Part shown: positions 3,751 through 36,795 of the stretch, piece after piece
Layout of the letters: each line of letters starts with the position of its first letter
How positions within the stretch are numbered: position 1 is the stretch's first letter
Assembly (NCBI GenBank): GCA_039680665.1
Contig: JBDKSM010000035.1
Coordinates: 337 to 64,336 of the forward strand
Source of the DNA: Syntrophaceae bacterium
Lineage (GTDB): Bacteria; Desulfobacterota; Desulfomonilia; UBA1062
Length of the DNA stretch: 64,000 nt
Direction: 5' to 3'
The notes under the pieces: generated by a model
Seen by the model: the letters and a program-made list of their open reading frames with translations, nothing else
Databases searched by the model: none
Told to the model about the DNA's origin: nothing
Position numbers and translations under genes: made by a program

Positions 3751-5589
3751 ATGGCAAGTCAGTGGGTTGACGAGAGGGATCTAAAATTCCAATTGTTTGA
3801 GATGTTTAAGATAGGGGAGACCCTGCTTGGCAAAGGCCGCTATGTGGACCATGATGTCGATATGTGCAACATGGTGCTCGATCAGGCTCAGAAATTCGCC
3901 GAGCTTGAGATAGCACCCACCTATCCGGACGAGGTGCAGCGCAAACCGGTCGAGGCCGAATTCAAAGAAGGCAAGGTCATCGTTCCTGAGGCGTATCACC
4001 GGCTCTGGAAGCTCTATTGCGAAGGCGGCTGGATGAGCACGGCGGATCAGCCCGAGGTCGGCGGACAGTCATTCCCGGCCTGCGTGGCCGCAGCCTGCGC
4101 CAACATGTTCCTGTCCACCAATCAGGCCTTTATCATGTATCCCGGTCTCACCCACGGCGCCGCGCGCCTGATGGAAGATTTCTTCCAGGGCTCTTTGCGG
4201 AACGTCGTCCTGGAAAAGATGTACACCGGCGAATGGGCGGGCACCATGTGCTTGACCGAGCCGGGCGCCGGTTCGGATGTCGGGGCCTTGAAGACCACCG
4301 CCAAGAAGAACGCTGACGGCACCTATTCCATCACCGGCACCAAGTGCTTCATCTCGGCCGGCGACCACAACCTGACCCCGAATATCATCCACCCGGTGCT
4401 GGCCAGGATTGAAGGCGACCCCAAAGGCACCAAAGGCATCTCCATCTTCATGGTGCCCAAAATCAGGTTCAACGAGAAGGGCGAGCTGGGCGAGCCCAAT
4501 GACGTATCCTGCGGCGGCATCGAGAGCAAGATGGGCATCCATGGCAACGCCACCTGTACGCTCAACTTCGGCGAGAACGGCAAGTGTCTCGGCTGGCTCA
4601 TGGGTGAAGAGCGCGAAGGCATGAAGATCATGTTCCACATGATGAACGAAGAGCGTCAGGGAGTGGGCATGATGGGCGCCTCTCTGGCGACCGCGGCCTG
4701 GCTGCATGCATTGGAATATGCCAAGGGCAGATTCCAGGGCCAGAACATCATCGCCATGGCCATGAAAGACGAGAACGCCCCCCAGGTGCAGATCATCCAG
4801 CACCCGGACGTGCGTCGCATGCTTCTCAAAATGAAGTCCACCACCGACGGAATCCGGGCTCTGTGCCTCCTGTGCTACTTCTGCATGGACAATGAGTTCA
4901 ACGCCATGATCGAAGGCAATGAGGAGCAGAAGGAATACTGGCACGGCCTGATCGAGGTGCTCACCCCCCTGGTCAAGTCCTACGGCACCGAGGCCGGCAT
5001 GGATGTCTGCGGCCTGGCCGTCCAGACCTACGGCGGCTACGGCTTCTGCCGCGAGTATCCGGTTGAGCAGATGATGCGCGACCAGAAGATCAATATGATT
5101 TACGAAGGCACCAACGGCATCCAGGCGATGGACCTGTTGGGCCGCAAACTGGGCATGAAGAAGGGCGCCTACTTTATGAACCTGCTGGGCTTCACCAAGC
5201 CCGCCATTGATGAAGCCAAAGCCAACGAGGCCTTCAAGGCCGAAGCCGCGGTGGTCGAGGGCGCCTTGAACGCCTGCGCCGAAACCGCCATGGCATTCGC
5301 CAAGATGATCAAGGTCACCCCGTATGTCCCGCTCATCGGCGCCGCCGACTTCCTCAACTGCATGTCCGAAGCACTGGTCGGCTGGCTGCAGCTCTGGATG
5401 GCCAACGCCGCCACCAAGGGCCTGGCCAGCGCCACGAGCGACAAGGACAAGGCCTTCTACACCGGCAAGCTCCATGCCGCCAAGTTCTACATCAACCGCA
5501 TCACCGGTCTGGTTCCGGCTAAGCTCGAAAACCTGAAGAAGGACGAACAGAGCGCCATGAACATCCCGGAAGAGGCCTTCGCCGTCTAA
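3751..5589 (+). CDS. Long-type acyl-CoA dehydrogenase (FadE/AidB-like, ~612 aa)
   Basis: ORF 3679..5589 trimmed to ATG 3751, preceded by RBS AAGGAGGG. Acyl-CoA dehydrogenase family protein with a long C-terminal extension; sequence starts MASQWVDERDLKFQLFEMFK. Confidence 0.85.
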   Translation: MASQWVDERDLKFQLFEMFKIGETLLGKGRYVDHDVDMCNMVLDQAQKFAELEIAPTYPDEVQRKPVEAEFKEGKVIVPEAYHRLWKLYCEGGWMSTADQPEVGGQSFPACVAAACANMFLSTNQAFIMYPGLTHGAARLMEDFFQGSLRNVVLEKMYTGEWAGTMCLTEPGAGSDVGALKTTAKKNADGTYSITGTKCFISAGDHNLTPNIIHPVLARIEGDPKGTKGISIFMVPKIRFNEKGELGEPNDVSCGGIESKMGIHGNATCTLNFGENGKCLGWLMGEEREGMKIMFHMMNEERQGVGMMGASLATAAWLHALEYAKGRFQGQNIIAMAMKDENAPQVQIIQHPDVRRMLLKMKSTTDGIRALCLLCYFCMDNEFNAMIEGNEEQKEYWHGLIEVLTPLVKSYGTEAGMDVCGLAVQTYGGYGFCREYPVEQMMRDQKINMIYEGTNGIQAMDLLGRKLGMKKGAYFMNLLGFTKPAIDEAKANEAFKAEAAVVEGALNACAETAMAFAKMIKVTPYVPLIGAADFLNCMSEALVGWLQLWMANAATKGLASATSDKDKAFYTGKLHAAKFYINRITGLVPAKLENLKKDEQSAMNIPEEAFAV

Positions 5590-6151: not shown

Positions 6152-7426
6152 TCAATCCCGTTCGTCCACGACGGCGGCATCTCCCTTGAACGCAGCTCCC
6201 GGAACGATACGCACACTCATGCGAACACCCGTGCCGGCATGGATGGCCCTTTCCAATTTCTCGACAAAGGCCTTTTGGGTACGCATCTCGTCAAAGAAGA
6301 GATTGTCTCCCACCTCGAGCAACACATCGGCCTTTTCATAGGATCCCTCGCGGTAGATATGCAGCTGGGTGCGGGTCTCCGCCCCTTCGTGTTTGAGAAT
6401 TTCACGAATGCGTTCAGGCGTCACACCCATGCCTTTGATCTTGATGGCATCATCCGTACGGCCGTAGATTTCGGCCAGACGGATATGCGTGCGCCCGCAC
6501 GGACATGCCCCATCCATCAGCATGGTGATGTCGCCGGTGCGATAACGGATCAGAGGAAAGGCCTCACGCGCCAGCGTCGTGATCACGAGCTCACCCTTAA
6601 CCCCGGACGGCAAAATCTGTCCGCTGGACGGATCGATGACCTCGGGGATAAAGAAGTCCTCGTACAGGTGCAGTCCCTCGTGCGCGCCGCACTCGCCCGC
6701 GATGCCCGGACCGAGCACCACGCTCGATCCGTAGCTGTTGAAAACCTCGACGCCCAGATCAGCGAAACGCTGCCTTACCTTGGGGCTCAGACGCTCGGCG
6801 CCCAGGATGGCGCGCCGCAGCCGCAAACCCTTGGGATTAATTCCCAGTTCGCCCAGCTTATCGAGCAGGATCAGGGCATAGCTCGGCATACAGGCGATCA
6901 CCGAGGTCAGGTAATCGCGCATGATGGTCACCTGCTCGGCCGTATTGCCGATATCGGCCGGTATGACCGAGGCACCGATGAGCTCCGCGGCGGCATGAAA
7001 GCCGAATCCACCGGTCATCAACCCGTAACGGAAGGCAATCTGGATCACGTCATCACGCGTGATGCCGGCGCAGATAAGGAAGCGCGCCACCAGTCTGGCC
7101 CAGGCCTTCAGGTCATTGGCGGTATGCCCCGTCACAATGGGCTTGCGCGCCTGACCCGATGAGGTATGGATGCGCACCACCTCCCTTAAAGGCACGGCGA
7201 ACATGTCATAGGGATAGCACTGCTCGATCTCCTGGCGGGTCGTGAACGGTAGCAAACTGATATCGGAAAGGGTTTTGACGTCCTCGGGCAATATGCCCGC
7301 CGCATCTAGGGCGCGGCGGTAATGGGCCACGTTCAGATAGGCCCGGTTCAACGTGGATTGAAGCCGCTCAAGCTGCAGCACCTTGAGCTCTTCCCTCGGC
7401 ATGGTTTCATAGCGCTCTTCCAGCAT
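6152..7426 (-). CDS. Phenylacetate-CoA ligase family (PaaK / coenzyme F390 synthetase-like adenylating enzyme), 425 aa
   Basis: Start trimmed to MLEERYETMPREELKVLQLERLQ... (ATG at 7424-7426, RBS AGGGAGGGAAGG). PaaK-family signature regions (…HTSSG…; …YGSS…) are present. Last gene of the liv-like operon. Confidence 0.85.
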   Translation of the reverse strand: MLEERYETMPREELKVLQLERLQSTLNRAYLNVAHYRRALDAAGILPEDVKTLSDISLLPFTTRQEIEQCYPYDMFAVPLREVVRIHTSSGQARKPIVTGHTANDLKAWARLVARFLICAGITRDDVIQIAFRYGLMTGGFGFHAAAELIGASVIPADIGNTAEQVTIMRDYLTSVIACMPSYALILLDKLGELGINPKGLRLRRAILGAERLSPKVRQRFADLGVEVFNSYGSSVVLGPGIAGECGAHEGLHLYEDFFIPEVIDPSSGQILPSGVKGELVITTLAREAFPLIRYRTGDITMLMDGACPCGRTHIRLAEIYGRTDDAIKIKGMGVTPERIREILKHEGAETRTQLHIYREGSYEKADVLLEVGDNLFFDEMRTQKAFVEKLERAIHAGTGVRMSVRIVPGAAFKGDAAVVDERD

Positions 7427-7439
7427 CGCCTTCCCTCCC

Positions 7440-8207
7440 TCATTCCTCGCTTCCCAGGTAAGCCTCCAGCACCCGCGGGTCCTTACGGACGATCTGCGGG
7501 GCACCCGCGGTCAGCACGCGGCCTTCGGCCATGACAATAATACGCTGACAAATGTCCATGATCAAATTCATATCGTGTTCAATGATGACTACCGTGAGAT
7601 CGAGCTCAGACTTGAGGCGCACGATAAGCTCGGAAAGTTTCTCGGTCTCCTTGGGATTCATGCCGGCGGCAGGTTCGTCCAGGAATATGACGGTCGGCTT
7701 GGCGGCCAGGGCCCGCGCTATCTCCACACGGCGCTGATTGCCGTAGGATAGATTGACGGCTTGCTCATCGGCCATGTCCTGCAGGCCCAGGCGTGTCAAC
7801 AACCTATGCGCTTCATTTCGGAGATTGCGTTCTTCGACACGCTTGGCCGGGGTATTGAACAGGCTGCGGCCGAAACCGGCCTTGAGTCTGCTATGGCCGC
7901 CCACCATCACATTTTCAAGCACGCTCATATCGCGAAAGATTTCCAGATTCTGGAAGGTGCGCGCCATGCCGAGCCGGACCCGGCGGTGAGGACGCAGCCG
8001 GGTGATGTCGCGGCCATGCAACAGGATACGCCCATCATCCGGCGTAAAAAGTCCTGTCAGGACATTGAAGAGCGTGGTCTTGCCCGCGCCGTTCGGTCCG
8101 ATGACACCCAGGATCTCGCCCTGGATAACCTCGAGCGATACATCGCTCAGGGCCTGGATGCCCATGAAATGCTTGCTTAAGGATGCTGCCTGCAGCACTA
8201 CTCCCAC
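7440..8207 (-). CDS. ABC transporter ATP-binding protein, LivG-like
   Basis: Walker A GPNGAGKTT and a LivG-type N-terminus; 13-nt gap to the downstream paaK-like gene. Confidence 0.85.
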   Translation of the reverse strand: MGVVLQAASLSKHFMGIQALSDVSLEVIQGEILGVIGPNGAGKTTLFNVLTGLFTPDDGRILLHGRDITRLRPHRRVRLGMARTFQNLEIFRDMSVLENVMVGGHSRLKAGFGRSLFNTPAKRVEERNLRNEAHRLLTRLGLQDMADEQAVNLSYGNQRRVEIARALAAKPTVIFLDEPAAGMNPKETEKLSELIVRLKSELDLTVVIIEHDMNLIMDICQRIIVMAEGRVLTAGAPQIVRKDPRVLEAYLGSEE

Positions 8208-8926
8208 ACCTCACGATAGCCCTTGCCCAGATAGGCGCGCTGGATCTCGTTGCTGGCCTTGAGCTCAGATGTCGGGCCTTCCATGACTATGCGCCCGGTC
8301 TCGACCACATAACCCCGCTGCGCCAGGCCCAGCGCCATGCGTGCGTTCTGCTCCACCAGCAGCAGGCTCAAGCCCTCTGTTTGGTTCAACTCTTTGATCT
8401 TTTCATAGATCTGGCTCACCATAATGGGCGCCAGGCCCATGGAAGGTTCATCCAAAAGCAATACCTTGGGCCGGGCCATCAAGGTCCGGGCAATGGCCAG
8501 CATCTGCTGCTCACCGCCCGAAAGTGTGCCCGAGAGTTGCCGTCGGCGCTGTCCCAGTATGGGGAAGAGTGCCTCCATGGCAGCCAAATCCTTCTTGATC
8601 TTGGCTCGATCCTTACGCGAATAGGCCCCCAGCACCAGGTTGTCATGCACGCTCAAGCCCCTAAACAACCGCCGACCTTCGGGCACATGCCCGATGCCGC
8701 GCTTGAGGATGCGCTCCGAGCTCAGATGGGTTATTTCGTTCTCACCCAAGACGATCTCGCCGGAGGCCGCTTTCACGATCCCGGAAATCGCCCGCAGGAT
8801 TGTGCTCTTGCCGGCGCCGTTGCCGCCGATCAGGGCCACGATCTCGCCCGGATTCACATGCAGGCTCACCCCCTTGACGGCATGGATATGCCCGTAATAG
8901 GTGTGCAGGTTCCTGACCTGGAGCAT
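8198..8926 (-). CDS. ABC transporter ATP-binding protein, LivF-like
   Basis: MLQVRNLHTYYGHIHAVKGVSL...GGNGAGKST; overlaps its neighbours by 10 nt and 1 nt (translational coupling). Confidence 0.85.
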   Translation of the reverse strand: MLQVRNLHTYYGHIHAVKGVSLHVNPGEIVALIGGNGAGKSTILRAISGIVKAASGEIVLGENEITHLSSERILKRGIGHVPEGRRLFRGLSVHDNLVLGAYSRKDRAKIKKDLAAMEALFPILGQRRRQLSGTLSGGEQQMLAIARTLMARPKVLLLDEPSMGLAPIMVSQIYEKIKELNQTEGLSLLLVEQNARMALGLAQRGYVVETGRIVMEGPTSELKASNEIQRAYLGKGYREVWE

Positions 8927-9792
8927 CAGCGGGCCCCCCCGAAGATCTCAGTGATCTTGACGCGGCCCATGATGCCCTGGGGCCTGAAAACCATCATGGC
9001 CACCAGCAAACCGCCGTAAAAAATATCCTGGTAATCCGCCAGGGGCCGCAGCACTTCGGGCAGCACGGTCAGCAGGGCCGCGCCCAAAAGCGCGCCCGGG
9101 ATACTGCCGATGCCGCCAAGGACCACCATGGACAGGATCATGATGGAGGTGTGCATGCCAAATGTGTGCGGGTTGATGTAGGCCGTATAATGGGCATAGA
9201 GACTGCCGGCCAATCCGGCCCAGAAGGCGCTGACCACGATCGCCAGGGTCTTGTAGCCGTAGATGTTGATGCCCATGAAGCTGGCCGTGATGTCGTTGTC
9301 CCGAATGGCGGCCCAGGCCCGCCCGATCTTCGAGTTCTTCAAGGTATACATACTGACGATCATGAAGCCCAGGATCACGACGCAGAGGAGAAGGAAGCCG
9401 GGTTTGGAATACAGCGGATTGCCGCAGAGCGTCACGGGCGGGATACCCACCAGCCCGTCGGTCCCGCCCGTGATGTCGAGGTTCATGAATATGATCTCGA
9501 CGATAATCCCGAAGCCCAAGGTGACGATGGCCAGGTAATCATCCTTGACGCGCAGCGCCGGCAGCGCCAGCGCCAGACCTAACAAGGCCGTAATAATCCC
9601 TGCGCTGCCGAAGGCTACCGGAAAACCGAGCCCCTTGATCATGATGATCCCGCTGGCGTAGGCCCCAATACCGAAGAAGGCCGCATGCCCGAGCGACACC
9701 AGTCCGGCGAAACCCACGCTGATGTTCAGGCTCAAGGCCAGCATGGCGAAGATGGCCACCATGATGAGCACATGCAGGATATATACACTCAT
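8926..9792 (-). CDS. Branched-chain-amino-acid-type ABC permease, LivM-like
   Basis: Polytopic membrane protein in operon between LivH-like and LivF-like genes. Confidence 0.8.
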   Translation of the reverse strand: MSVYILHVLIMVAIFAMLALSLNISVGFAGLVSLGHAAFFGIGAYASGIIMIKGLGFPVAFGSAGIITALLGLALALPALRVKDDYLAIVTLGFGIIVEIIFMNLDITGGTDGLVGIPPVTLCGNPLYSKPGFLLLCVVILGFMIVSMYTLKNSKIGRAWAAIRDNDITASFMGINIYGYKTLAIVVSAFWAGLAGSLYAHYTAYINPHTFGMHTSIMILSMVVLGGIGSIPGALLGAALLTVLPEVLRPLADYQDIFYGGLLVAMMVFRPQGIMGRVKITEIFGGAR

Positions 9793-10646
9793 TACTGCCG
9801 CCCCAAGATGCCGCGCGGCCGGATGATGAGCACCAACACCAGCGCGATGAAGGCGAAGGCGTCCTTGAAGTGCGAGGACAGGTAGGCCGCACCCAGGTTT
9901 TCGGCCACGCCCAGCACCAGACCGCCTATGATCGCGCCTGGAATGGAGCCCACTCCGCCCAGGATGGCGGCCGAAAAGGCCTTGAGTCCCGGCAGCAGTC
10001 CCATATTCGGGGCAGTGGCATTATAGTACATCGCCATCAGGATACCGGCCACCCCGCTCATGGCCGAACCCAAAAGGAAGGTGGTTACATAGGCGGCGTT
10101 GACATTGATGCCCGAAAGTTTGGCCGCATCACTGTCCATGGCCACGGCCATGATGGCCTTGCCGTGTTTGGTCAGATTCAGAAAGAGCCAGAGCATCACC
10201 ATGAGCGCGAGCGAGACCAGAATGATAACCAGCTGCAGCTCCGTAATTTCGGCCCCAAAAAATTGATAGCTGTGCGGATGGAATTCCATAGGAAAGGACC
10301 GGTCCTCGGGTCCGAAGATGAGCCGTGCCAGCGAGCTTAAGAAGATAGAAGCGCCAATGGCGCTGATGAGGGGAATGAGTGGATGCATGCCGCGCACAGG
10401 CCTGAAGGCGAAGCGTTCCAGAAGCACCCCCACCAGGCAGGCCGCCGCAATACCTGCGACAATTGCCAGTACCAGGTTGCCCGTGGCGGCCAAGGTTAGT
10501 ACGGCGCCGAAGGCGCCGTACATGTAGATCTCACCCTGGGCAAAGTTGACAATCCCCAAAATGCCGAAAATCATGGTGTAGCCTAGGGCGACCAGCGCAT
10601 ACACGCAGCCCGCCGCCAGGCCGTTTACCAGTTGCTGTAAAAGCAC
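9792..10646 (-). CDS. Branched-chain-amino-acid-type ABC permease, LivH-like
   Basis: MLLQQLVNGLAAGCVYALVALGYTMIFGILGIVNFAQGE... typical LivH N-terminus. Confidence 0.85.
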   Translation of the reverse strand: MLLQQLVNGLAAGCVYALVALGYTMIFGILGIVNFAQGEIYMYGAFGAVLTLAATGNLVLAIVAGIAAACLVGVLLERFAFRPVRGMHPLIPLISAIGASIFLSSLARLIFGPEDRSFPMEFHPHSYQFFGAEITELQLVIILVSLALMVMLWLFLNLTKHGKAIMAVAMDSDAAKLSGINVNAAYVTTFLLGSAMSGVAGILMAMYYNATAPNMGLLPGLKAFSAAILGGVGSIPGAIIGGLVLGVAENLGAAYLSSHFKDAFAFIALVLVLIIRPRGILGRQ

Positions 10647-10647
10647 A

Positions 10648-11775
10648 TTATTTGACCTTTACGTATTTGCCTTTGACCACCTTGAAGATGTACACGCCCT
10701 GCTTGACCACATCGCCGTTGTTATCGAAGCTCAACTTGCCGGTCACGCCGTCGAAATCCTTGACCGTGTCGAGATAGCCTCTCATCTGGTCCGGGGCGCC
10801 GCCCTTGGTGGCAATGGCCGTGGACACCAGGCGCGTCATGTCATAGGTGATAGCCGCGAACATGGCGTTGTTGGGTTCCTTGGTGTCGGCCTTGACGATC
10901 TTGTAATAGGCATCCTTGAACTTTTTGTTGGTGGGGGTGTTGTAATCCTCGTCATACTCGCTGCAGTTGATATGGCCTTCGGAGGCCTTGCCGGCCAGCT
11001 CGATGTACTTGGGCGCCATGTCACCGAAGACGCCCATGGATTGGGCCGTGATGCCCATGCGGCGGGCCTGGGAGATAGCGGGAGCGGTCTCCTGCAGATA
11101 GCCGGGGATAAAGAGCAGGTCAAAGGGCTTCTGCTTGAGCTTGGTCAGCTGGGCCGAGAAGTCGCGGTCGCCGACCATGAAGCTCTCCGTGCTGATTACA
11201 GGAATGCCGAGTTCAGCGAAACACTTGGTGAAGAGATCATTGCAGCCCTTGCCATAAGGCTCGTTGCTGTACAGGATGACCGGTTTGGTCGTCTTCAGGC
11301 TTTCCTTGGCGTATTTGGTGAGGCTTGCGGCCTGCTTGTCAATGCGGGTACAGCCGCGGTACACATATTCGCCCGCATCTGAGATCTTGGGCGAAGTGCC
11401 GTTGGGGGTGACGATGACGATCTTATCTCGCTGGGCCAAAGGCGCCACGGCCAACACGTTGCCGCTCATCATCGGGCCGATGATGACCTTGACCTTGTCC
11501 ATGGAGACCAGTTTCTGATAAGCGGCCACCGAGGCAGGGGCGCTGTCCTTCTCATCCTCGAAGATCACCTTGAGTTGTTTGCCGTTTATGCCGCCCGCGG
11601 CGTTGATTTCCTTGACCGCGATCTCGACACCGCGCTTGGCGGGCAGCCCGTCCGATGCGCCCTGCGAGAGCCTCAAAATGGCCCCGATCTTGATCTCCTC
11701 GGCAGCCCGTGCCTCGCTCAAACCTAAGCCCAATACCACCATTGCGACCATCACCAACAACCATAGTCTCTGCAT
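10648..11775 (-). CDS. Periplasmic substrate-binding protein of the ABC importer (LivK/Leu-Ile-Val-binding family fold), 375 aa
   Basis: Trimmed to MQRLWLLVMVAMVVLGLGLSEARA (signal peptide) with RBS GGAAGGAGGAAGGG. The ORF-track N-terminal extension is rejected. Confidence 0.8.
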   Translation of the reverse strand: MQRLWLLVMVAMVVLGLGLSEARAAEEIKIGAILRLSQGASDGLPAKRGVEIAVKEINAAGGINGKQLKVIFEDEKDSAPASVAAYQKLVSMDKVKVIIGPMMSGNVLAVAPLAQRDKIVIVTPNGTSPKISDAGEYVYRGCTRIDKQAASLTKYAKESLKTTKPVILYSNEPYGKGCNDLFTKCFAELGIPVISTESFMVGDRDFSAQLTKLKQKPFDLLFIPGYLQETAPAISQARRMGITAQSMGVFGDMAPKYIELAGKASEGHINCSEYDEDYNTPTNKKFKDAYYKIVKADTKEPNNAMFAAITYDMTRLVSTAIATKGGAPDQMRGYLDTVKDFDGVTGKLSFDNNGDVVKQGVYIFKVVKGKYVKVK

Positions 11776-11815
11776 CCCTTCCTCCTTCCCAAATTTCAAT
11801 TCGTATCTCGTTGTT

Positions 11816-11849
11816 GATAAAAAAGGCCATGGGGATTGCCCATGGCCTT
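11816..11849 (-). terminator. Intrinsic terminator/attenuator hairpin in the 5' leader of the liv-like/paaK operon
   Basis: Minus strand: AAGGCCATGGG-caatc-CCCATGGCCTT followed by TTTTTTATC, ending ~40 nt upstream of the SBP start codon. A candidate promoter (TTGACA-18-GATAAA) lies ~150 nt further upstream on the minus strand. Confidence 0.55.
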
Positions 11850-12093
11850 GTGTGTCTCTCTCGCGCACCCGGCCTATGGGCACCGTTTTTTCCGATAATA
11901 ATAAACGTAGCGATAGGCCTGAATGCATGCGTAGTTTCTCATAGCAGCGTTTATCCTTCGGGGAGGCCCTGGCTGTCAAGCGAAAAAGCAGGAAGGGATT
12001 AAAGGCGCTTCGTATACCAATCCGTAAAACGGATGTCTCTCAGGACATCAGGGCAACCAAGCCGGATGAGTCCTGGAAAGATACGAAGGCCGG

Positions 12094-13299
12094 CTACCGT
12101 AAAACCTGGCTGATATCATCGAGCAGGCGTTCGAGCCGGTTATCCGTGGCAAGTACGCTGGGCAGGGAAACGGTCACTTCCAGCCGGTCGGCGCAGCCTG
12201 TCAGGACCACGAAAGACGGGATACCGTCCACCCGCGGCGGTATCAAAAAAACCGTATCGGCCTGAAAACCGGCCCCGCGAAAATTGTCCCGATTGAAACG
12301 GCCCAGGTTGGAAAGCAGCGTCGAGGAGCTATACGTGCCCTTATAATGCCAGCTCAGGGTGATCAGTTTCAACCCGATCTGGAGCAAGGCGATCGGGATC
12401 ATGTCCACCACGGTTCCGCCCTCAAAGAGCATGCAATCATATTTCTCGTCCAGCTGCCGTTTGACCTCGCGGGCAATATCTTCGGGGCTGTCCTCAGGGG
12501 TTACCTCGACATAGAGGGCCATGGACATATTGTTGGTGGTCCGCAGACCGGGCTGCCGTTGTCTCAGATCCACGGGGATCGCCAGCATGACCGGACCAGA
12601 ACCATACTGCCGGGCGGAATGCGCCAGGGCCCAGCCGACCTTTCCCAGAACCTTGGAGAAGCTCCCCGTAAAGGTGAGCCTTTTCCAGCGCGTGCCCGCT
12701 TGGAACCCTCGCGCTCGCCCGGTGGGCGCGATGCTGTTGACCGGCGGCATTATGCGGGTGCGGTCGGTGAATTGGCGCAGAAAAGTGACCATACTGGGAG
12801 GATCTTCAAGCGAACCCAACGGCTCTTCATCGCGCAGGACCCGGAAGATATCCTCGGCCCAGTACACCGTGCCCATGCCGTCCATGGCGCCGTGGTTGGA
12901 CCTGAACACCAGGCGTGTCACCGGGCCGCTTTCCAGGTACAAGACCTCACAGGTAGGCCCGCGGTATGGCAGACCCGCCATCAGAAAGGGGGCGTTCTCC
13001 GAGCCGCGACCGTCCCAGGTAACGTCCTTCAGGCAGCGGACAGGCGGTGTCAGGCCTGAATCCAGCCAATAACAACCGCGCAAGGCGCCCCTCAAGATCA
13101 GCCGACTGCCCGGATTGGCCTCTGAGGCCTTGGCGACGGCGTCTTCCAAGCGGCCCTGGTCAATAACGCCCTGCCCCTCAACCACCACCTGGTTGGCATA
13201 CGGGGGGGCGACCGCATCGGCGGCCAGCCACAAACGTTCCACAATCGGCAAAGGTCTTTGGAATCGTGTGCCCATATTGGGTTTCTTATCGGCAGACAA
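12094..13299 (-). CDS. Stand-alone condensation-domain-like acyltransferase (401 aa), paralog of the N-terminal domain of the NRPS at 21231..25175
   Basis: C1-like motif PLPIVERLWL and an active-site variant SNHGAMDG (HxxxDG). Alignable along its full length with NRPS residues 1-400 (e.g. GKVGWALA, PVDLR..QPGLR, NLGR/NLGH blocks). Confidence 0.7.
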   Translation of the reverse strand: MSADKKPNMGTRFQRPLPIVERLWLAADAVAPPYANQVVVEGQGVIDQGRLEDAVAKASEANPGSRLILRGALRGCYWLDSGLTPPVRCLKDVTWDGRGSENAPFLMAGLPYRGPTCEVLYLESGPVTRLVFRSNHGAMDGMGTVYWAEDIFRVLRDEEPLGSLEDPPSMVTFLRQFTDRTRIMPPVNSIAPTGRARGFQAGTRWKRLTFTGSFSKVLGKVGWALAHSARQYGSGPVMLAIPVDLRQRQPGLRTTNNMSMALYVEVTPEDSPEDIAREVKRQLDEKYDCMLFEGGTVVDMIPIALLQIGLKLITLSWHYKGTYSSSTLLSNLGRFNRDNFRGAGFQADTVFLIPPRVDGIPSFVVLTGCADRLEVTVSLPSVLATDNRLERLLDDISQVLR

Positions 13300-13334: not shown

Positions 13335-15287
13335 TTAGATGGTCCGCGACGTGCCGGCCGGTGCACCCGCGAGGGAAAAGTCGATGAGGCCGCGTACAGG
13401 ATCGACGCGGATGACGCGGACCCGTATGATCTCACCGATGGAGATGGTCTTTTTGCGCATCCTTACGTAGCGGTCCTGCACGATCTTGGCCTGCGGTCCC
13501 AATTCCGCGGCGCCCACCAGGCCGTCCGTGGGCGGATCGGCGATCTGTACGAAGACACCGAACGGCATGATGCTCGTGACCACGCCGGAGAACTCCTCGC
13601 CTACATGGCGCGCCATATAGGCCGCGGTCTTGAGCTTGATGACCTCCAGCATGGCCTCGTTGGTCACCCGTTCCTTACGGCTCACTTCGGGCCCCACGAA
13701 TTTAAGGTAACGTTGCCACTTGGTATATTCTTTCTTGGAAAGGCGTTCGTCCTTTAGCGCGACCTTGACCAGACGGTGGACGATCAGATCAGGATAGCGC
13801 CGTATGGGCGAGGTGAAGTGCAGGTAGCCCTTGAAGGCCAGGCCGAAATGTCCCACGTCCTCATGCTGGTACTTGGCCTGTCTCAACGAGCGCAGGATCT
13901 GCTGGTGCACGAAGGTCCCGCGGGGATCGTCCTGGAAGGCCTCGGCGATCGTTTGCAATGCCTTATTCAAGCCTTTCCCGAAGGCGATAGCCTGGCGCAG
14001 GCTGGAGAGCAGCTCCTGAGAGACGCCTACATCACTCAAGATCGCAAGGAGATCGAAAAGATCATCCTCGGCCGGCATATCATGGACACGGTAGAGTGCC
14101 GGGAGATCGCGGTCGTGCAGATAGCGGCACACCGCCAGGTTGGCCATGAGCATGGCTTCTTCAATCAGACGTTCACCCGAACCGCGCGGACGCCGGTAGA
14201 TGTTTTCCACCAAGCCTTCGCTGTCCAGATCGATGTCCAGCTCCGGCAGATCGAAATCCAGGCTGCCGCTCTGCCTGCGCCGGGCATGCAGAAAACCGGT
14301 CACGCGCTTCAAGAGTTTGAGGGCCTGTACAACCCGGGCATCCACCTTGGGCGGGTGACCCTTGCCGTCAAGAAAGGCTCCGACCTCCTCATAGGTAAGC
14401 CGGGCCCATGAATTTATCACGGCTTCACAGCAATCATAGCCCACGAGCTTGCCGCGCGGCCCGATCTGCATCTCCACCACCATGGCCAACCGGTCGACAT
14501 GGGGATTCAAACTGCACACCCCGTTGGAGAGCACCTCGGGCAGCATCGGGATGCAGGCCTCCGGGAAATAGACCGAGAACGAGCGCGTGAACGCTTCCTG
14601 GTCGAGCAACGTGCCGGTTTTCACAAAAGCGGCCACATCGGCGATGGCTACGGTCAGGCGATAGGAGCCGTCCGGCAGCGGCTCGATGCCCACGGCATCG
14701 TCGAAATCACGCGCCGAGGCCCCATCCACGGTAAAAAGCACCCTGTCCCGGAGATCACGGCGCTGACCCAATTCGGCCGCCGGATTCGTTTCGGCCACGA
14801 CGCTGGCTTGGGCCTCGACTTCGGCCGGGAACAGCCAGGGCAGGCCATGCTTGGTGGCCACAAAGCGCAGGTCCTCACCGATATCATCCGGGAAGCTCAA
14901 GGCCTGCACGACCTGGGCCGCCACGGCGTCAATGCGCTTTTCATGCTTGGGCGGCTCGATACGGGCCATCACGAGATCCCCGCTGCGAGCCCCGGCCTCG
15001 CTGCCGTGCGGGATAATAATGGTATACGGGAAGGGCTGGTTGGGTTCCAGCGTGCCCCATTTCTTGGACCTGCGATAGCGCCCGCTTAAGGTTATGGTGC
15101 CCCGCGCCAGGATGGAGACGATGCGGCCCCGCAGACCTTTTTTGTCGTGATAGGCCTCGACCTCTACCATATCGCCGTCCATGGCGCTCAGGAGATCGCT
15201 ACCCGGGACAAAGACATCCGGTCCGTTCTGGGTGACCACAAAGGCGAAACCCTTGGGATTCCAACTGAGCTTTCCCTGCACTCTCAT
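13335..15287 (-). CDS. RNase II/R family 3'-5' exoribonuclease (RNB domain with cold-shock and S1 domains), 650 aa
   Basis: N-terminus MRVQGKLSWNPKGFAFV (CSD), central RNB domain, C-terminal S1-like region. Confidence 0.85.
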   Translation of the reverse strand: MRVQGKLSWNPKGFAFVVTQNGPDVFVPGSDLLSAMDGDMVEVEAYHDKKGLRGRIVSILARGTITLSGRYRRSKKWGTLEPNQPFPYTIIIPHGSEAGARSGDLVMARIEPPKHEKRIDAVAAQVVQALSFPDDIGEDLRFVATKHGLPWLFPAEVEAQASVVAETNPAAELGQRRDLRDRVLFTVDGASARDFDDAVGIEPLPDGSYRLTVAIADVAAFVKTGTLLDQEAFTRSFSVYFPEACIPMLPEVLSNGVCSLNPHVDRLAMVVEMQIGPRGKLVGYDCCEAVINSWARLTYEEVGAFLDGKGHPPKVDARVVQALKLLKRVTGFLHARRRQSGSLDFDLPELDIDLDSEGLVENIYRRPRGSGERLIEEAMLMANLAVCRYLHDRDLPALYRVHDMPAEDDLFDLLAILSDVGVSQELLSSLRQAIAFGKGLNKALQTIAEAFQDDPRGTFVHQQILRSLRQAKYQHEDVGHFGLAFKGYLHFTSPIRRYPDLIVHRLVKVALKDERLSKKEYTKWQRYLKFVGPEVSRKERVTNEAMLEVIKLKTAAYMARHVGEEFSGVVTSIMPFGVFVQIADPPTDGLVGAAELGPQAKIVQDRYVRMRKKTISIGEIIRVRVIRVDPVRGLIDFSLAGAPAGTSRTI

Positions 15288-16451: not shown

Positions 16452-17273
16452 TCATGCGCCTTGGTCGGGTTTCACGAACAAGCGCCGTGTTTCCCGGGTA
16501 ATCATCCGCACCCGCAGGCGTCTTGAAAGAAGGCGCTCAAGGAGCACGGCCCCGAGTTTATTGAATGTACCGATGACCCTGCGCGGGCCTTTGTCCAGGG
16601 CATCCAAGGCCTCCCGGGCCACATCATCCGGAAGCATGGCCGGTGAACGTTTCAATTCTTCCTGGTTGATGCGGTGCATGACCGTGGGGGTGAGCGTGGC
16701 GCCGGCTACCACGGATAATACATGTACACCGTGATGCCGCCATTCTTCCCAGAGTCCCTCGCCCAGAACAATGTCAAAGGCCTTGGTGGCGGCGTAGTCG
16801 GCGACCAGCCCCGAGCCTTGCAGCCCGGCCATGGAGGACATCAAAATTACGCCGCCCCGACCGCGCCGCACCATGCCCGGACCCAAGGCATGGCATAAGA
16901 GCAGAGGCCCCCGGCAATTGACATTGAAGATGGCCAGGAGGTCTTCCAGCGGCGCCTGCGTGAATTCACGGACCTCGGAATTGCCGGCATTGTAAATCAG
17001 CAGCCCGATCTCAAGGTCATCCACCTGGGGCAGCAGTTCGTCCAACAGGTGCTCTGAGCCCAGATCGATGGCAATGGGCCGTACTTGAGCGGCATAGTGA
17101 TCACGCAACTCCCGGGCCAGGGTTTCCAGTTTTTCACGGCCACGGGCCAGCAGGACCACGTTCATCCCACGCTGAGCCAGTTGACGGGCATAGGCTTCGC
17201 CGATGCCCGTGGATGCCCCGGCAACCAAGGCCCAGGGTCCATACCGGGCGAGAAAAGATGCTTTATCTTTCAT
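16452..17273 (-). CDS. SDR-family oxidoreductase (short-chain dehydrogenase/reductase)
   Basis: Trimmed to MKDKASFLARYGPWALVAGASTGIGEAY (Rossmann TGxxxGxG). Start overlaps the upstream flavoprotein stop by 11 nt. Confidence 0.8.
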   Translation of the reverse strand: MKDKASFLARYGPWALVAGASTGIGEAYARQLAQRGMNVVLLARGREKLETLARELRDHYAAQVRPIAIDLGSEHLLDELLPQVDDLEIGLLIYNAGNSEVREFTQAPLEDLLAIFNVNCRGPLLLCHALGPGMVRRGRGGVILMSSMAGLQGSGLVADYAATKAFDIVLGEGLWEEWRHHGVHVLSVVAGATLTPTVMHRINQEELKRSPAMLPDDVAREALDALDKGPRRVIGTFNKLGAVLLERLLSRRLRVRMITRETRRLFVKPDQGA

Positions 17274-18123
17274 GAGGTTTACCCGCAAGAGGCTTGCCCT
17301 CCTTTGTAATCCATCGGCCGACATCCTTGAAGCGTGAGCGCAGCATGCGATGGTGTTCTCTCTTGGCGGTATATTCGATGACCTTGGGCTTCAGCCAGCC
17401 TTCGAAGTGTTCGACGAAGCCTTTTTCGCTGAACCTGCCCGAATCATGGAACGACTGCCAGGCACCGTCTAAGTATTCACCCGCGCTTTCGCACAAGACG
17501 CAGATCAATTGCCGGTCCCGTACAAAGAAGAGGTCCGAGCCGCAGGAGGGGCAGACGAGCGTCTTGGAAGGGAAATAGCAATGGGTGTCATCGCCTAAGG
17601 CCTTGGCGAGGCCTTGCGCCACCGGCGTATAGACTTCGTCGAGGCTTTCACCCGGCAGAGCGGCCTCGATGAAAGCGCTGCCCTTGAGCCGGAATCCCAT
17701 CATGCGGATGACGGCATTCACCATGGATTGGGTTACCCCGCGCCAGCTTTCAATGCCTCCGAAAACCGCGCTGACGGCATTGATCTTGCCGAAGACCGGA
17801 TGAAAGCCGGACATGCAGGCCAGCCGGTCGGCCAGGAGCTTGAATTGTCCGACCGGTCCCAGGACATAGGTCGGGATGGAAAAAATAACATGCTCGTATT
17901 CCGTCATGGTCTTTAGGATGAAATACAGATCGTCCTCGACCTGGCAGCGGTGCTCCGGATTCAGGCAGCGATAACACCCCATGCAGGGCCTAAGCGTAAA
18001 ATCCGTCAGACGCAGGACAGCGATGTGATCGGCAGGCGTAAAGAGCGCAACCTGTTTGGCAAACATCTCGCAATTTCCCAGGCGCCGGAACGATCCTGTG
18101 ACCAGTAAAACCGAAGTCGCCAC
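17263..18123 (-). CDS. NADPH-dependent FMN reductase/flavodoxin-like (iron-sulfur flavoprotein-like) with Cys-rich C-terminal zinc-ribbon-like extension
   Basis: GTG start VATSVLLVTGSFRRLGNCEMFAK, preceded by a perfect RBS TAAGGAGGA 8 nt upstream. C-terminal CPSCGSD...CVLCES motifs. Confidence 0.65.
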   Translation of the reverse strand: MATSVLLVTGSFRRLGNCEMFAKQVALFTPADHIAVLRLTDFTLRPCMGCYRCLNPEHRCQVEDDLYFILKTMTEYEHVIFSIPTYVLGPVGQFKLLADRLACMSGFHPVFGKINAVSAVFGGIESWRGVTQSMVNAVIRMMGFRLKGSAFIEAALPGESLDEVYTPVAQGLAKALGDDTHCYFPSKTLVCPSCGSDLFFVRDRQLICVLCESAGEYLDGAWQSFHDSGRFSEKGFVEHFEGWLKPKVIEYTAKREHHRMLRSRFKDVGRWITKEGKPLAGKPHER

Positions 18124-18216
18124 TCCGCAATCCTCCTTATGCATTTCATGCCAACCGCGATCCTACAGGATCAGGGGGCGGCCATGATCATAAGAAAATA
18201 ATTCCCCCCTGTCGAG

Positions 18217-20490
18217 CTATTTGAGCACGAAGGTCCGGCTGGCGCCCTCGAAGGCATGCAGCGTGTGGTCTTGGGTTTTGTAATCGCCATGGTAACGGAT
18301 GACATAGCGTCCCGGTTCAGCGTCAGAGGTGTTCCATACGATGGTGGCCGTGGAGCTGCGAGAATCACCCCGCTCCCAGATGAATTTGGTGTCCGGGTCC
18401 CAATCGCGGCGCACGATCTGATAGCCGCCGCCGGTTTCCTGCTCGACGGTCAGGAAGGTGTCCATGGAACGGCGGTTGTTGCGGGGGTTCGCCCCCTGGA
18501 AGGTCGCCTTGACCTTATCGCCGATGCTATAGGAGGCAGCTGGCTGGCTGATCACCTGGCCGTACGTTTTCCCGCTCGGCGCCTCATCGTATGGCATCGC
18601 GGTTGAGAAATCGAATTGATCGTTGCGTAAATCGAGCGGAAAAGGACCGGATGCCACAGGCGTACCGGCGAGGATGGCATCGCAGAGCTTGGCGTATTCC
18701 TGCTGGAAGGCTTCCAGCTCGTGCGGGCCGAACATGGTGCCGGCGCCTTCATAGCCCTGCTTCCCATATTCCTCGCCGGTTGCCAGGTAGGAGGCATAGG
18801 TATTGGACAATCCGGCGATCACGGCATGATCGACCTCACGATCCTGAAAACGCGAGAGCAGCGTGTTCTTAACGCGTCGGCCCGCCATGGTGGTAATCTC
18901 GGTGGGCTGGGCCGCGATGACAAGGTTGCCGATCTTGAGCACCTGCACCGGCAGCACCTGGGGCATCAAGGGGATGAATTTGACCAGGTTGAACGTCATC
19001 AGTCCCGTGGGCAGGATCACCGGTTTGACCCCCTGGCACTCGATATAATCCTTGGAAAGGGTGGTGGGCCAGATAAGGCCGATGGCGCCCGGCAAGAGCG
19101 TGGCCAGCAGCGTTTCCTGGATATCGGTGCCGCTGTTCCAGTCAATGGCGCCCACGTCATCTCTGGTTACGCCTTCGCTGAAGAGTGGGTACGGCGTGGG
19201 GTTGTCACAAGGGCTGCCGTAGGAATAGGAGGCCCCCATGCCGGAGGGACAGGTCGAGCAACCGGCCGCGTCAACCGCAAGAGAGCGCATGTCAACGAAC
19301 TTATGGCGGTAATCAACCGAACCGTGCACGGGTTGCATAACGCCCTGATAGAGCTCAAGGGCCTTGCGGTACTGCAGGGTGGCTTCAAGTTTGAGCACGA
19401 GGTTTTCCTCAATATCGGCCTCGCCCTTGGCCTCATCCCAGGGGAAGCCCTGGCGCGCGATCTCGCCTTCAGGGTCGGTGATTCCGTAGGCCTTCAGGGC
19501 TTTCACGGCGTCGGACTGCGAGAACGCATGCGTGGTGAAAGGCACGTTGGGCGTGACATCCCCGGAGTTGCTCTGCGCGAAGGCGGCCACGAACGTGAGG
19601 GGATCGGTATAATCGCCGCCCATATGCTTCTCGAACAAATAGGCGGCATGTCCCTTGCTGTCGCCGCTGATGAGATGATTGGACGGACCGATGCAATCGG
19701 GATGGACGGCGAACCAGTTGAGCATGCCGAGCCCCACTTCCCGGCCCTCGGCATCGTACCCCACGAATTTGAGCACGGTCATGGTGGTGTCGATGTTGCC
19801 GTCATAGGCGGCGCGCTCGGCCGCCGGATTGTTGTCATAGGCAACGGATGAACGGTTCCAGCCTGCAGCGGCAAGGTTGCCTTGGGCGATATAGATCCTG
19901 CCCGGCCTCAGGTTGGCATGGGCACGTTTGATGGAAGCGAAGATGCCGTCCGTCACGGCATCGAAGCTGTCCTGGATGAAACCCAGATTGGGTACGTTGT
20001 AGAGAAAATAATGCGAGAACCCCGCCACGGAAGAGTGGCTGTGGGTAGCGCTTAAGCAGACATTGTCGTTATTGTAATAGGGGCTGAGCTCGGGGTCGGC
20101 GGCCAGCCGACGGGCGATCTCCTGCTTGACGGATTGGCACATGGCCCATGTATCGGCATTCACAAAAACCACCCGTCTGGCAGGGGTTGCGGGATCGGCG
20201 ATGATAAAGCTTCGCGCCCACAGACGCATGGAAATTCCGGCGGTCTTCTGATCTGAAAAGGCGAAACCGCCCATAGTCACTTCCGAGGCCGGCCCGGTGA
20301 TATCATAGATGCCCACACCGATGAGGTAACGATCTCCATTGGCCGCATTGTCGGAGGTGGACCGTGTATCGCTGCTCCTTATCCCTGAATCTTGAGATGT
20401 ATGAGAATCCCCGGATTGGCATCCATTTAAGCCCAGCACCATGATCGCAATCAGCAGTAGTCCGAATCTTCCCGCAAGACCCCGCTTCAT
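18217..20490 (-). CDS. Neutral/alkaline ceramidase family amidohydrolase, predicted lipoprotein (757 aa)
   Basis: Lipobox LGLNGC followed by a Ser/Thr/Asp-rich linker. Full-length collinearity with neutral ceramidases: YLIGVGIYDITGP, SATHSHS, MLNWFAVHP, AAFAQSNSGDV, TFLTVE, IRYHGDYK. Confidence 0.85.
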   Translation of the reverse strand: MKRGLAGRFGLLLIAIMVLGLNGCQSGDSHTSQDSGIRSSDTRSTSDNAANGDRYLIGVGIYDITGPASEVTMGGFAFSDQKTAGISMRLWARSFIIADPATPARRVVFVNADTWAMCQSVKQEIARRLAADPELSPYYNNDNVCLSATHSHSSVAGFSHYFLYNVPNLGFIQDSFDAVTDGIFASIKRAHANLRPGRIYIAQGNLAAAGWNRSSVAYDNNPAAERAAYDGNIDTTMTVLKFVGYDAEGREVGLGMLNWFAVHPDCIGPSNHLISGDSKGHAAYLFEKHMGGDYTDPLTFVAAFAQSNSGDVTPNVPFTTHAFSQSDAVKALKAYGITDPEGEIARQGFPWDEAKGEADIEENLVLKLEATLQYRKALELYQGVMQPVHGSVDYRHKFVDMRSLAVDAAGCSTCPSGMGASYSYGSPCDNPTPYPLFSEGVTRDDVGAIDWNSGTDIQETLLATLLPGAIGLIWPTTLSKDYIECQGVKPVILPTGLMTFNLVKFIPLMPQVLPVQVLKIGNLVIAAQPTEITTMAGRRVKNTLLSRFQDREVDHAVIAGLSNTYASYLATGEEYGKQGYEGAGTMFGPHELEAFQQEYAKLCDAILAGTPVASGPFPLDLRNDQFDFSTAMPYDEAPSGKTYGQVISQPAASYSIGDKVKATFQGANPRNNRRSMDTFLTVEQETGGGYQIVRRDWDPDTKFIWERGDSRSSTATIVWNTSDAEPGRYVIRYHGDYKTQDHTLHAFEGASRTFVLK

Positions 20491-20521
20491 ACCTCCTCCT
20501 TCCCCCTTGCAACTAATGAAC

Positions 20522-21193
20522 CTATGCCATTTTATACCCTGACGGCAGACTCATAAAGCTGAAAACCAAGGTGTTTATCACGATGCTTCCTACCAGGAAT
20601 TCGAAGTCCGGCGGATACGGCCCGATTGGCCGCATGAGCCTGCCGCGAAAGCCTTGACCGTGCCATGTCAGTCCGGCGTCCATAAAATCAAGGTATACGC
20701 CGATCTGGGGGAAAAAGGCCTTGAATGCGGCCTCCTTGGCTGAAAAAAGCCGTACCAGACGCAGCGCATCCTGACCCACCCAGGCGCGTTCCTCATCCAT
20801 GCCGACCACCTGGCTGAACTCTTGATCGAACCGCTCCGGAATGGATTCAAGATCAATGCCGATCCCGGCGGCATGGTCCCGTGAACAAACGGCACAAACA
20901 GCGATCCCGGCCGTATGGGTGATGGAGCCGACATAGCCTTCCGGCCAGAGCGGTTCATACAAAGGACCCTGAAGGATGGGCGGCGGCGGGCTGAAACCGA
21001 GTTGCTTGAGGGCGGCATGCGCGGCGGCGCGACCGAGCACGAACTCGTCCCGGCGTTTGAGCGCCATGCGTGGACTTAAGAGCCGTGCCTCAGCAGGATC
21101 GAGGGAAAATCCCGCCGCTCCGTGCTTGGTCCTAACGGCAAAACCCACATACCCCTGGAATGGCGATCTGATCATGGCCGTCGGGAGCGACAA
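20522..21193 (-). CDS. Sfp/EntD-type 4'-phosphopantetheinyl transferase
   Basis: Motifs GIGIDLE and FSAKEAAFKA; 37 nt downstream of the NRPS stop, on the same strand. Confidence 0.8.
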   Translation of the reverse strand: MSLPTAMIRSPFQGYVGFAVRTKHGAAGFSLDPAEARLLSPRMALKRRDEFVLGRAAAHAALKQLGFSPPPPILQGPLYEPLWPEGYVGSITHTAGIAVCAVCSRDHAAGIGIDLESIPERFDQEFSQVVGMDEERAWVGQDALRLVRLFSAKEAAFKAFFPQIGVYLDFMDAGLTWHGQGFRGRLMRPIGPYPPDFEFLVGSIVINTLVFSFMSLPSGYKMA

Positions 21194-21230
21194 CTAAACG
21201 GGCAGATCGCCGCGAACTTCACCAGATTTC

Positions 21231-36698: not shown

Positions 36699-36795
36699 CT
36701 CAAAAGGTAGGTAGGGTGAAAGACAGATCATACATTAAAGCGAGGTGAAGGATAAAAGGGGTGCAGAGATGCACCCCTTTTCTTTTTGAAAACGT

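Follow-up and report, generated by a model that had tools for sequence, protein, structure and literature searches.

A conserved tyrosine-rich leader reading frame and probable transcription attenuator ahead of an importer and ligase operon in Desulfomonilia

The leader region and its operon

The 64,000-nt stretch of DNA analyzed here (the window; contig JBDKSM010000035.1 of the Syntrophaceae bacterium assembly GCA_039680665.1, positions 337 to 64,336) encodes on its minus strand an ABC-type importer together with a PaaK-family ligase, and the intergenic region ahead of this operon holds a short, tyrosine-rich open reading frame (ORF) followed by a strong hairpin of the intrinsic terminator type. 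ORF and hairpin were found conserved in 14 distinct leader sequences from related loci. The whole case is computational, and it indicates that the element is very probably a ribosome-mediated transcription attenuator of the trpL/pheL type, which would report the charging of tRNA-Tyr in the window and of tRNA-Tyr and tRNA-Phe in relatives.

The intergenic region extends from the stop codon of an upstream 401-aa ORF (12096-12094, minus strand) to the ATG of the gene for a substrate-binding protein (SBP) at 11775. This gap of 318 nt (12093-11776) folds at -115.2 kcal/mol (z = -4.1 versus shuffles) and contains the following features:

11974..11979, minus strand: -35 hexamer TTGACA of the putative leader promoter (direct reading)
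11950..11955, minus strand: putative -10-like hexamer GATAAA, separated by 18 nt from the -35 hexamer and by 7 nt from the leader ATG
11874..11942, minus strand: leader ORF of 22 codons plus TAG, MRNYACIQAYRYVYYYRKKRCP (direct reading; homologous ORFs in 14 leaders)
11895..11915, minus strand: cluster of Tyr codons Y10, Y12 and Y14-Y15-Y16 in the run Y-R-Y-V-Y-Y-Y; a further Tyr codon, Y4, at 11933-11931
11913..11934, minus strand: region 1, within the leader ORF, the 5' arm of the 1:2 helix or anti-antiterminator (minimum free energy folds; repeat I2)
11860..11882, minus strand: region 2; TGCCCATAGGCC (11882-11871), which spans the stop codon at 11876-11874, is its pairing segment for region 3, and ATAGGCCGGGTGCGC that for region 1
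11837..11849, minus strand: region 3, comprising the 5' arm of the terminator (11849-11839) and the 3' arm of the antiterminator, GGCCATGGGCA (11847-11837)
11823..11833, minus strand: region 4, the 3' arm of the intrinsic terminator, CCCATGGCCTT (terminator scan)
11817..11824, minus strand: T run, T6 (11824-11819) and then AT; a run of at least 6 T is present in 14/14 leaders
11787-11781 and 11775-11773, minus strand: Shine-Dalgarno sequence AAGGAGG and ATG of the SBP gene (direct reading)

The hairpin, identified by a terminator scan at 11849-11823 of the minus strand, reads AAGGCCATGGG-CAATC-CCCATGGCCTT, with 11 pairs, 7 of them G-C, a 5-nt loop and TTTTAT behind the stem; two T of the T6 run are able to pair with AA at the base of the stem. 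It ranks strongest among 14 terminator-like sites in 10.5 kb, and its tail ends at 11817, 41 nt ahead of the SBP ATG. The strong hairpin with a U6 tract that the initial annotation had placed just before the SBP start is therefore indeed present, and the accompanying proposal, that transcription of the operon is obliged to read through a regulated terminator, is supported, as 41 nt are too little for a promoter. Since transcription of the operon would have to pass this terminator, the element would be an attenuator. The simple terminator pattern as such is not enriched over the whole region (14 found versus 9.7 +/- 3.2 expected); what speaks for more than chance is that the element is conserved as a whole across 14 diverged loci, and not the pattern counts. 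A search with the whole leader (nhmmer) found a single copy in the window. The GGCCATGGGC motif was also considered as a REP-like or otherwise repeated element, which was rejected: its 29 one-mismatch matches, versus 12.9 expected, are scattered in the window, and none of them shares the context of this hairpin.

The leader ORF, a short ORF in the 5' leader ahead of the first structural gene, opens with an ATG at 11942, 7 nt past the -10-like hexamer, and closes with TAG at 11876-11874; 6 of its 22 codons in the window specify Tyr. A candidate promoter of the form TTGACA-18-GATAAA had been predicted and is present as described (11979-11950). The -35 element TTGAC(A/C) occurs without variation in 15/15 loci with the leader, its first base 36-39 nt ahead of the leader ATG, and the homologues carry GATAAA, GATAAC, GATATA or GAAATA at the place equivalent to the -10-like hexamer, with a spacer of 17-18 nt. 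In most loci, 7-8 nt separate the end of this hexamer from the ATG; the distance reaches ~10 nt in the related loci L054 and L057, and the -10 of L061 is ambiguous. The -10-like hexamer of the window is overlapped by a Shine-Dalgarno-like GAAGGA, for which L032, L036 and L061 show no conservation. The simplest reading is probably that a sigma-70-type promoter starts transcription at the A of the ATG and that the sensor ORF is leaderless; the fixed spacing from promoter to ATG would then point to a leaderless sensor ORF in a lineage other than Actinobacteria and Deinococcus. What had been called a 318-nt leader is correct as the size of the intergenic region, while the transcribed leader would measure only ~167 nt (11942-11776) if the promoter is real. 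An inverted repeat (I3; 11941-11954 with 11901-11914, 14 nt, 79% complementary) would pair the -10/ATG region with the run of Tyr codons; this pairing is possible only in transcripts from further upstream, i.e., in readthrough from the upstream gene.

The operon behind the leader was predicted to comprise six genes ending in a PaaK-family ligase, and this is borne out by matches to one SBP, two permeases, two ATPases and one ligase (Pfam, NCBIfam, PDB) as well as by a gene order shared with related loci. The regulated operon and its neighbor are:

6152..11775, minus strand: regulated operon as a whole
11775-10648, minus strand: SBP (Peripla_BP_6), gene 1
10646-9792, minus strand: livH-like permease (BPD_transp_2), gene 2
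9792-8926, minus strand: livM-like permease (BPD_transp_2), gene 3
8926-8198, minus strand: livG-like ABC ATPase, gene 4
8207-7440, minus strand: livF-like ABC ATPase, gene 5
about 7430-6152, minus strand: PaaK-family ligase, here paaK2, gene 6
13299-12094, minus strand: upstream 401-aa PapA_C-like ORF, adjoining the leader, with a weak match to PapA_C (acyltransferase) only

Conservation of the leader among relatives

Relatives of the locus were collected by scanning species-representative genomes and JGI metagenomes with the SBP, which yielded 49 loci, nearly all from Desulfomonilia, Thermodesulfobacteriota or 'delta proteobacterium' metagenome-assembled genomes (MAGs). In total, 14 distinct leaders were identified in 19 loci, all from Desulfomonilia/Thermodesulfobacteriota MAGs and metagenomes; JAKQBR01, CAYGXB01 and JBEKDT01 are among the MAGs with the element. 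The leader lies directly 5' of the SBP gene in L023 (SBP 93% identical), L001 (89%) and L016/L025/L026 (78%). In L036 and L032/L038, nhmmer placed it 4.2 kb upstream of the SBP gene, where it precedes iorA (TIGR03336, 745 bits, above cutoff) at the head of a long operon of the order iorAB-paaK-ACT-SBP-livHMGF-paaK2, the second PaaK-like ligase of which is orthologous to that of the window. Furthermore, the contigs of 12 IorA homologues were fetched and checked for the leader, which was found upstream of iorA in L050, L051, L052/53, L054/55, L057, L060, L061 and L062, so that it precedes iorA in 10 distinct loci. It was absent from L056, L059 and L063 among these 12 contigs, and an IorA identity below ~70% marks the limit of the family. 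When the 473 kb of fetched sequence were searched with a profile of the 14 leaders, no additional copy emerged, and the window gave only one. For L010-L013, L015 and L017, the 4-kb flanks end short of the place where a leader upstream of iorA would be.

The leader was marginal in L058, whose IorA is 68% identical. Between positions 1230 and 1500, this locus contains a diverged terminator, AAGGCCGTGACT-TGC-AGTCATGGCCTT followed by TTTGTC, and a 26-codon ORF, MFMSDNSFFRTLSGLLSAPKRESHCS, with three Phe codons only; this may represent a decayed or a Phe-only variant of the leader. In L002, L005 and L006 (~3880-4000) as well as L056 (~1420-1500), we observed a TTGACA-type promoter and a 5' untranslated region of ~70 nt without either ORF or terminator. 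SBP orthologues that lack the leader retain TTGACA-17-GATACA.

The comparative alignment of leaders that had been proposed together with the initial annotation revealed that the ORF is maintained as an ORF in all 14 distinct sequences. The peptides are 20, 22, 23 or 24 aa long and every indel is a multiple of three; the leader frame is open in 14/14, while the other two frames run into stops in 9/14 and 10/14. Tyr and Phe together account for 90 of 297 non-initiator residues (30%), compared to 6.8% over 7,542 codons of the window genes, and Trp codons are absent from the 14 leader ORFs. The aromatic cluster lies 13 to 7 codons ahead of the stop in essentially all leaders, and substitutions inside it are interchanges among TAT, TAC, TTT and TTC that give, e.g., YYY, FFY, FYF or FFF (L023 has TAT-TAC-TAT); the residues at the N-terminus are free to vary. 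Only Tyr is used in the window, L023 and L001, and a mixture of Tyr and Phe in the remaining leaders. Codon choice is skewed as well: Phe is encoded by TTT 33 times and by TTC 5 times in the leaders, the opposite of the window genes (TTC 205 versus TTT 76), and Tyr by TAT 35 times versus TAC 17 times. This skew may derive from selection for slow codons or for an A/U-rich, unstructured spacer.

The RNA of the leader offers mutually exclusive pairings. The stop codon of the ORF is contained in TGCCCATAGGCC, which is complementary to GGCCATGGGCA and thereby to the 5' arm of the terminator, and a stretch beginning with ATAGGCCGGG, which overlaps TGCCCATAGGCC, is complementary to codons ~4-10 of the leader ORF. 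All three pairings were also returned independently by a generic inverted-repeat finder:

11816-33 with 11839-56, minus strand: 3:4 repeat (terminator)
11871-90 with 11900-19, minus strand: 1:2 repeat (I2)
11837-43 with 11876-82, minus strand: 2:3 repeat (I4; antiterminator)

This layout is the four-region scheme of the trp, phe and his attenuators. Within region 2, G-C-C-C-(A/G)-T-A-G-G-C is invariant or nearly so in the 14 leaders; conservation is poor between regions 2 and 3. The helices fared as follows in a MAFFT alignment of the 14 sequences (A2):

Terminator (3:4): 98.1% of cells paired; one A-U to G-C compensatory pair and four G-U changes
1:2 helix: 84% paired; three pairs changed on both sides (A-U/U-A/C-G, C-G/G-C)
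Antiterminator (2:3): 98.7% paired; one compensatory change, U-A to C-G in L054, and three wobble changes

For the terminator and the 1:2 helix jointly, 7 cells are changed on both sides versus 2.9 +/- 1.3 in shuffled alignments, and only 4 of 500 shuffles reach 7; helices slid along the alignment as controls are paired in at most 55%.

Ribosome position, proposed mechanism and alternatives

The position of the codons relative to the helices corresponds to that expected of a ribosome-read switch. The last codon of the cluster starts 15 nt before region 2 in 10/14 leaders (range 3-18 nt), and the stop codon lies within region 2 in 14/14. A ribosome covers ~12-13 nt 3' of its A site, and the spacing of 15 nt is just past this protected stretch, as in the trpL/pheL/hisL class. 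When we masked a ribosome with its A site on the last cluster codon, the minimum free energy (MFE) structure was the 2:3 antiterminator in 14/14 leaders (-17.7 to -28.3 kcal/mol), whereas with the ribosome on the stop codon the terminator hairpin formed in 14/14 and 2:3 pairing was impossible. With region 3 not yet transcribed, region 2 pairs with codons ~4-11 in 13/14 leaders. The folding comparison of terminator and antiterminator suggested earlier has thus yielded mutually exclusive 3:4 and 2:3 helices in 14 leaders, accompanied by the 1:2 helix, with the terminator placed after the leader ORF and ahead of the first structural gene.

In the mechanism that these features suggest, the A of the leader start codon (11942) or an adjacent nucleotide would be the transcription start, and the 22-codon ORF would be translated by a ribosome. 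With Tyr-tRNA plentiful, the ribosome would proceed to the TAG at 11876-11874 inside region 2 and mask region 2; once it has departed, or if the ORF is left untranslated, region 2 would be captured by region 1. Region 3 would then be left free for region 4, the terminator (11849-11823) with its U tract would form, and transcription would stop at ~11819-11817. With Tyr-tRNA scarce, the ribosome would stall within Y-R-Y-V-Y-Y-Y (11915-11895), cover region 1 and end ~2-3 nt before region 2, so that region 2 would pair with region 3 as soon as the latter is made, no terminator would form and RNA polymerase would enter SBP-livHMGF-paaK2. Both the translation of the leader ORF and the response of termination and readthrough to Tyr/Phe are predictions from sequence.

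Several observations weigh against this interpretation. Invariant pairs make up 7/11 of the 2:3 helix and 6/11 of the 3:4 helix, covariation in 2:3 consists of one compensatory pair plus wobbles, and the corresponding shuffle control is non-significant (89/500); covariation is thin for the antiterminator helix and, by itself, no proof of it. An invariant antiterminator core is to be expected, because region 3 has to match both region 2 and region 4. Moreover, the 14 leaders come from a single clade and are non-independent samples, and region 2 of L057 has a different pairing partner. The MFE structure without a ribosome is already the antiterminator in 7/14 leaders; therefore, basal termination would need a 1:2 helix formed co-transcriptionally (i.e., kinetically) or a ribosome at the stop codon. 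The element is also absent from close SBP or IorA orthologues in other lineages (L002, L005, L006, L056, L059 and L063), and since orthologues exist without ORF and terminator, the attenuator would have been gained or lost within the clade. Finally, a consensus promoter scan omits TTGACA-18-GATAAA because its -10 element lacks the canonical final T; we infer a promoter here nonetheless, because it is comparatively conserved.

Four alternatives were weighed against attenuation by tRNA charging. In the first, a TnaC-type nascent-peptide arrest, free Tyr or Phe would block release at a Pro-stop and the stalled ribosome would control the terminator. Pro followed by a stop codon is the arrest context in TnaC, and the leader peptides end in Pro-TAG in 14/14 cases and in Cys-Pro-TAG in 11/14. 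However, CCA/CCG-TAG sits in the region 2 helix, so that RNA pairing alone suffices to account for its conservation. Arrest of the TnaC type is characterized by a Trp12/Asp16/Pro24-like motif and by Rho-dependent termination, whereas the leader peptides lack Trp as well as any conserved motif beyond the aromatic run, their N-terminal half is free to vary, and the leader terminator is intrinsic. A run of 5-8 codons for the sensed amino acids is, furthermore, the hallmark of tRNA-charging sensors. We therefore regard this alternative as very unlikely; a stall of this kind would share the regulatory sign, with abundance turning the operon off.

The initial annotation had left the choice between ligand- and translation-controlled attenuation. 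The translation-controlled option is supported by the conserved Tyr-rich leader ORF, while a riboswitch found no Rfam match. A metabolite-binding riboswitch or a T-box that senses its ligand or uncharged tRNA directly, without translation of an ORF, would agree with the presence of terminator and antiterminator alternatives and with a leader that folds better than its shuffles (z = -4.1). The Rfam scan that had been proposed was run over 11500-12400 (cmscan, E <= 10) and returned no riboswitch, T-box (RF00230), Phe_leader or Trp_leader but only three chance-level matches (BSnc120, MS2 hairpin and sR44). In addition, the only extended conserved segment that precedes the terminator is an ORF with phase-preserving indels and conservation of amino-acid class, and a variable stretch separates regions 2 and 3. 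Direct sensing by RNA is, accordingly, most improbable.

A simpler explanation, which had been named at the outset as capable of overturning the proposal, as would a lack of conservation of the leader, is that the hairpin serves the co-directional 401-aa PapA_C-like gene as its intrinsic terminator and does nothing else, and that the liv-like operon has its own, unregulated promoter. Indeed, the gene preceding the hairpin runs in the same direction in the window, L001 and L023. Against this, the hairpin is located 245 nt past the stop codon of that gene, the remaining 41 nt to the SBP ATG are too short for a promoter, and a separate long hairpin with a U-rich stretch (12091-12004) directly follows the upstream stop. 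Moreover, the upstream neighbors in L016 (GH31) and L032 (Usp) are unrelated and divergently transcribed, and ORF and hairpin also stand before iorA in 10 distinct loci. Because the element travels with the SBP gene or iorA behind unrelated divergent genes, the hairpin is not explicable as a terminator of the upstream gene, and this alternative has next to no probability left. The long imperfect hairpin itself (12004-12091, minus strand; MFE), which lies directly 3' of the stop of the 401-aa ORF and continues into the U-rich CUGCUUUUUCGC next to the -35 hexamer, is a plausible terminator of the upstream gene, distinct from the attenuator hairpin.

Finally, an independent small gene of ~125 nt, producing a small RNA (sRNA) and/or the 22-aa peptide that would act in trans like rnTrpL/peTrpL of Sinorhizobium, with cis attenuation as a secondary role, would be in line with the unit's own promoter and terminator and with precedents for functions of attenuator-derived sRNAs and peptides (PMC6614838, PMC7298713), but it is hardly to be expected: every copy directly precedes an operon of one and the same family in the same orientation, the peptide is unconserved outside the aromatic run, and neither the window nor 473 kb of related loci contain a second copy. 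Such a role would be compatible with the attenuator explanation and no true alternative to it.

Operon function and relation to known systems

If the element is a tRNA-charging attenuator, the sign of the switch amounts to functional annotation: a HAAT ABC importer, PaaK-like ligases and, in relatives, an indolepyruvate:ferredoxin oxidoreductase (IOR) are argued to supply aromatic amino acids. Codons for Tyr and Phe are enriched in the leader ORF, and the link of these amino acids to the operon rests on the IOR, the near-cutoff PaaK and the ACT-pair protein of the long operon form found under the leader. The genes iorA, iorB and the ACT gene are absent from the window (tblastn), which contains the short form. 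The nearest solved relatives of the SBP are amino-acid-binding HAAT proteins (4gnr, 1.5e-44; LivJ/LivK, ~1e-30 to 1e-32), and aromatic-acid binders match it far worse (4evs/4f06, ~1e-18; PDB similarity), so that its predicted ligand class leans toward the amino-acid binders without this being decisive. The uptake and CoA activation of an aromatic or branched acid that the initial annotation suggested is accordingly no more than a possible role. The ligase of the window is closest to phenylacetate-CoA ligases (2y4o, 2.5e-95) and falls below the PaaK equivalog cutoff (390 versus 646 bits). Such a second PaaK-like ligase (~385-390 bits versus 646) follows the HAAT ABC genes in all loci that reach far enough, with or without the leader, e.g., at 6152-7504 in the window and at 9332-10612 in L032.

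A switch that opens when charged Tyr- or Phe-tRNA is scarce would fit an operon for the supply of aromatic amino acids and not for their degradation. This supply could proceed, we infer, via import of amino acids and/or via uptake of aryl-acetates, their activation with CoA and IOR-dependent reductive carboxylation. As a tentative hypothesis, to which we give clearly less than an even chance, the widespread iorAB-paaK-ACT-HAAT ABC-paaK2 cluster would be anabolic in Desulfomonilia: induced by Tyr/Phe starvation through a leaderless Tyr (Tyr/Phe) sensor ORF, it would import aromatic amino acids and/or aryl-acetates and convert the CoA thioesters via IOR to arylpyruvates and on to Tyr and Phe. 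IOR-dependent reductive carboxylation of aryl acids has been described for Methanococcus maripaludis (Porat et al., as cited in PMC4162585), and if our hypothesis is true, the cluster would be a bacterial counterpart of this aryl-acid route. It conflicts with the fermentative role that is usually assigned to IOR clusters (e.g., PMC5817080). A literature search on the iorAB-paaK-ACT-ABC cluster returned nothing relevant. The choice between supply and degradation bears on the metabolic reconstruction of uncultured anaerobes.

The wider window is ordinary chromosomal DNA with 58.6% G+C and includes housekeeping genes for RelA/SpoT (42372-44492), a class II lysyl-tRNA synthetase (35175-36731) and RNase R (13335-15287). 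Furthermore, a run of lipid-type genes occupies 16452-25187 (minus strand) together with 12094-13299. It encodes an SDR, an FMN-reductase-like protein, a 757-aa homologue of neutral/alkaline ceramidase (PF04734, 5.7e-145), a 4'-phosphopantetheinyl transferase and a 1318-aa protein in which ~690 N-terminal residues without domain match are followed by AMP-binding and PP-binding domains. This run may be a cluster for sphingolipids or unusual lipids in a Desulfomonilia-like genome.

Among known systems, the pheL attenuator provides the precedent (PMC3082878). Like E. coli pheL-pheA (and pheM-pheST), the element combines a leader ORF rich in aromatic codons with 1:2, 2:3 and 3:4 helices, an intrinsic terminator and, as proposed here, tRNA charging read by the ribosome (PMC3082878, PMC11802643). 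It differs in that it does not match the Rfam Phe_leader model and that its codons are Tyr only (window, L023, L001) or Tyr/Phe. Its target is an ABC importer with PaaK and IOR instead of chorismate mutase-prephenate dehydratase or PheRS, its host belongs to the Thermodesulfobacteriota instead of the Gammaproteobacteria, and its translation is probably leaderless. With E. coli trpL-trpEDCBA, it shares the four regions and the principle that a terminating ribosome masks region 2 while a stalled one frees it; amino acid, sequence family and targets differ, and trpL is led by a Shine-Dalgarno sequence, whereas the ORF described here is apparently leaderless.

As far as can be seen from the account of Neshat et al. 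(2014) in PMC11802643, aroR before aroF in Corynebacterium glutamicum is likewise an attenuator of aromatic amino-acid supply with Phe and Tyr codons in its leader. According to the same account, however, aroR has a single Phe-Tyr-Phe and responds to Phe and not to Tyr, compared to 5-8 aromatic codons here, which are Tyr only in the window, and its target is DAHP synthase, i.e., de novo synthesis, in contrast to transport and salvage genes; sequences and phyla are unrelated. The position of the ORF at the 5' end of the transcript and its richness in a related amino acid resemble the leaderless leader peptides of Deinococcus deserti (14 predicted; PMC4007540) and the mycobacterial poly-Cys small ORFs (bioRxiv 10.1101/834739). 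The latter act on translation by sequestration of the ribosome-binding site, in contrast to the intrinsic terminator found here, where the leaderless status is suggested by spacing. Finally, as in Firmicutes T-boxes upstream of amino-acid transporters (PMC2965389), scarcity of charged tRNA would lead to antitermination and induce uptake, but T-boxes bind uncharged tRNA directly by means of a specifier loop and a T-box sequence, for which there is no match here, the sensor being a putatively translated ORF instead.

A scope-limited full-text search of the literature found no characterized Tyr-specific leader-peptide attenuator, and the leader does not belong to any curated Rfam leader family (cmscan of 11500-12400, E <= 10). 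While the mechanism is that of the textbook, no earlier description exists of this family, of its host lineage or of its target operon. The element would thus add a Tyr- (or Tyr/Phe-) sensing family to the leader-peptide attenuators, from a phylum (Thermodesulfobacteriota) and class (Desulfomonilia) for which the map of such elements is essentially blank.

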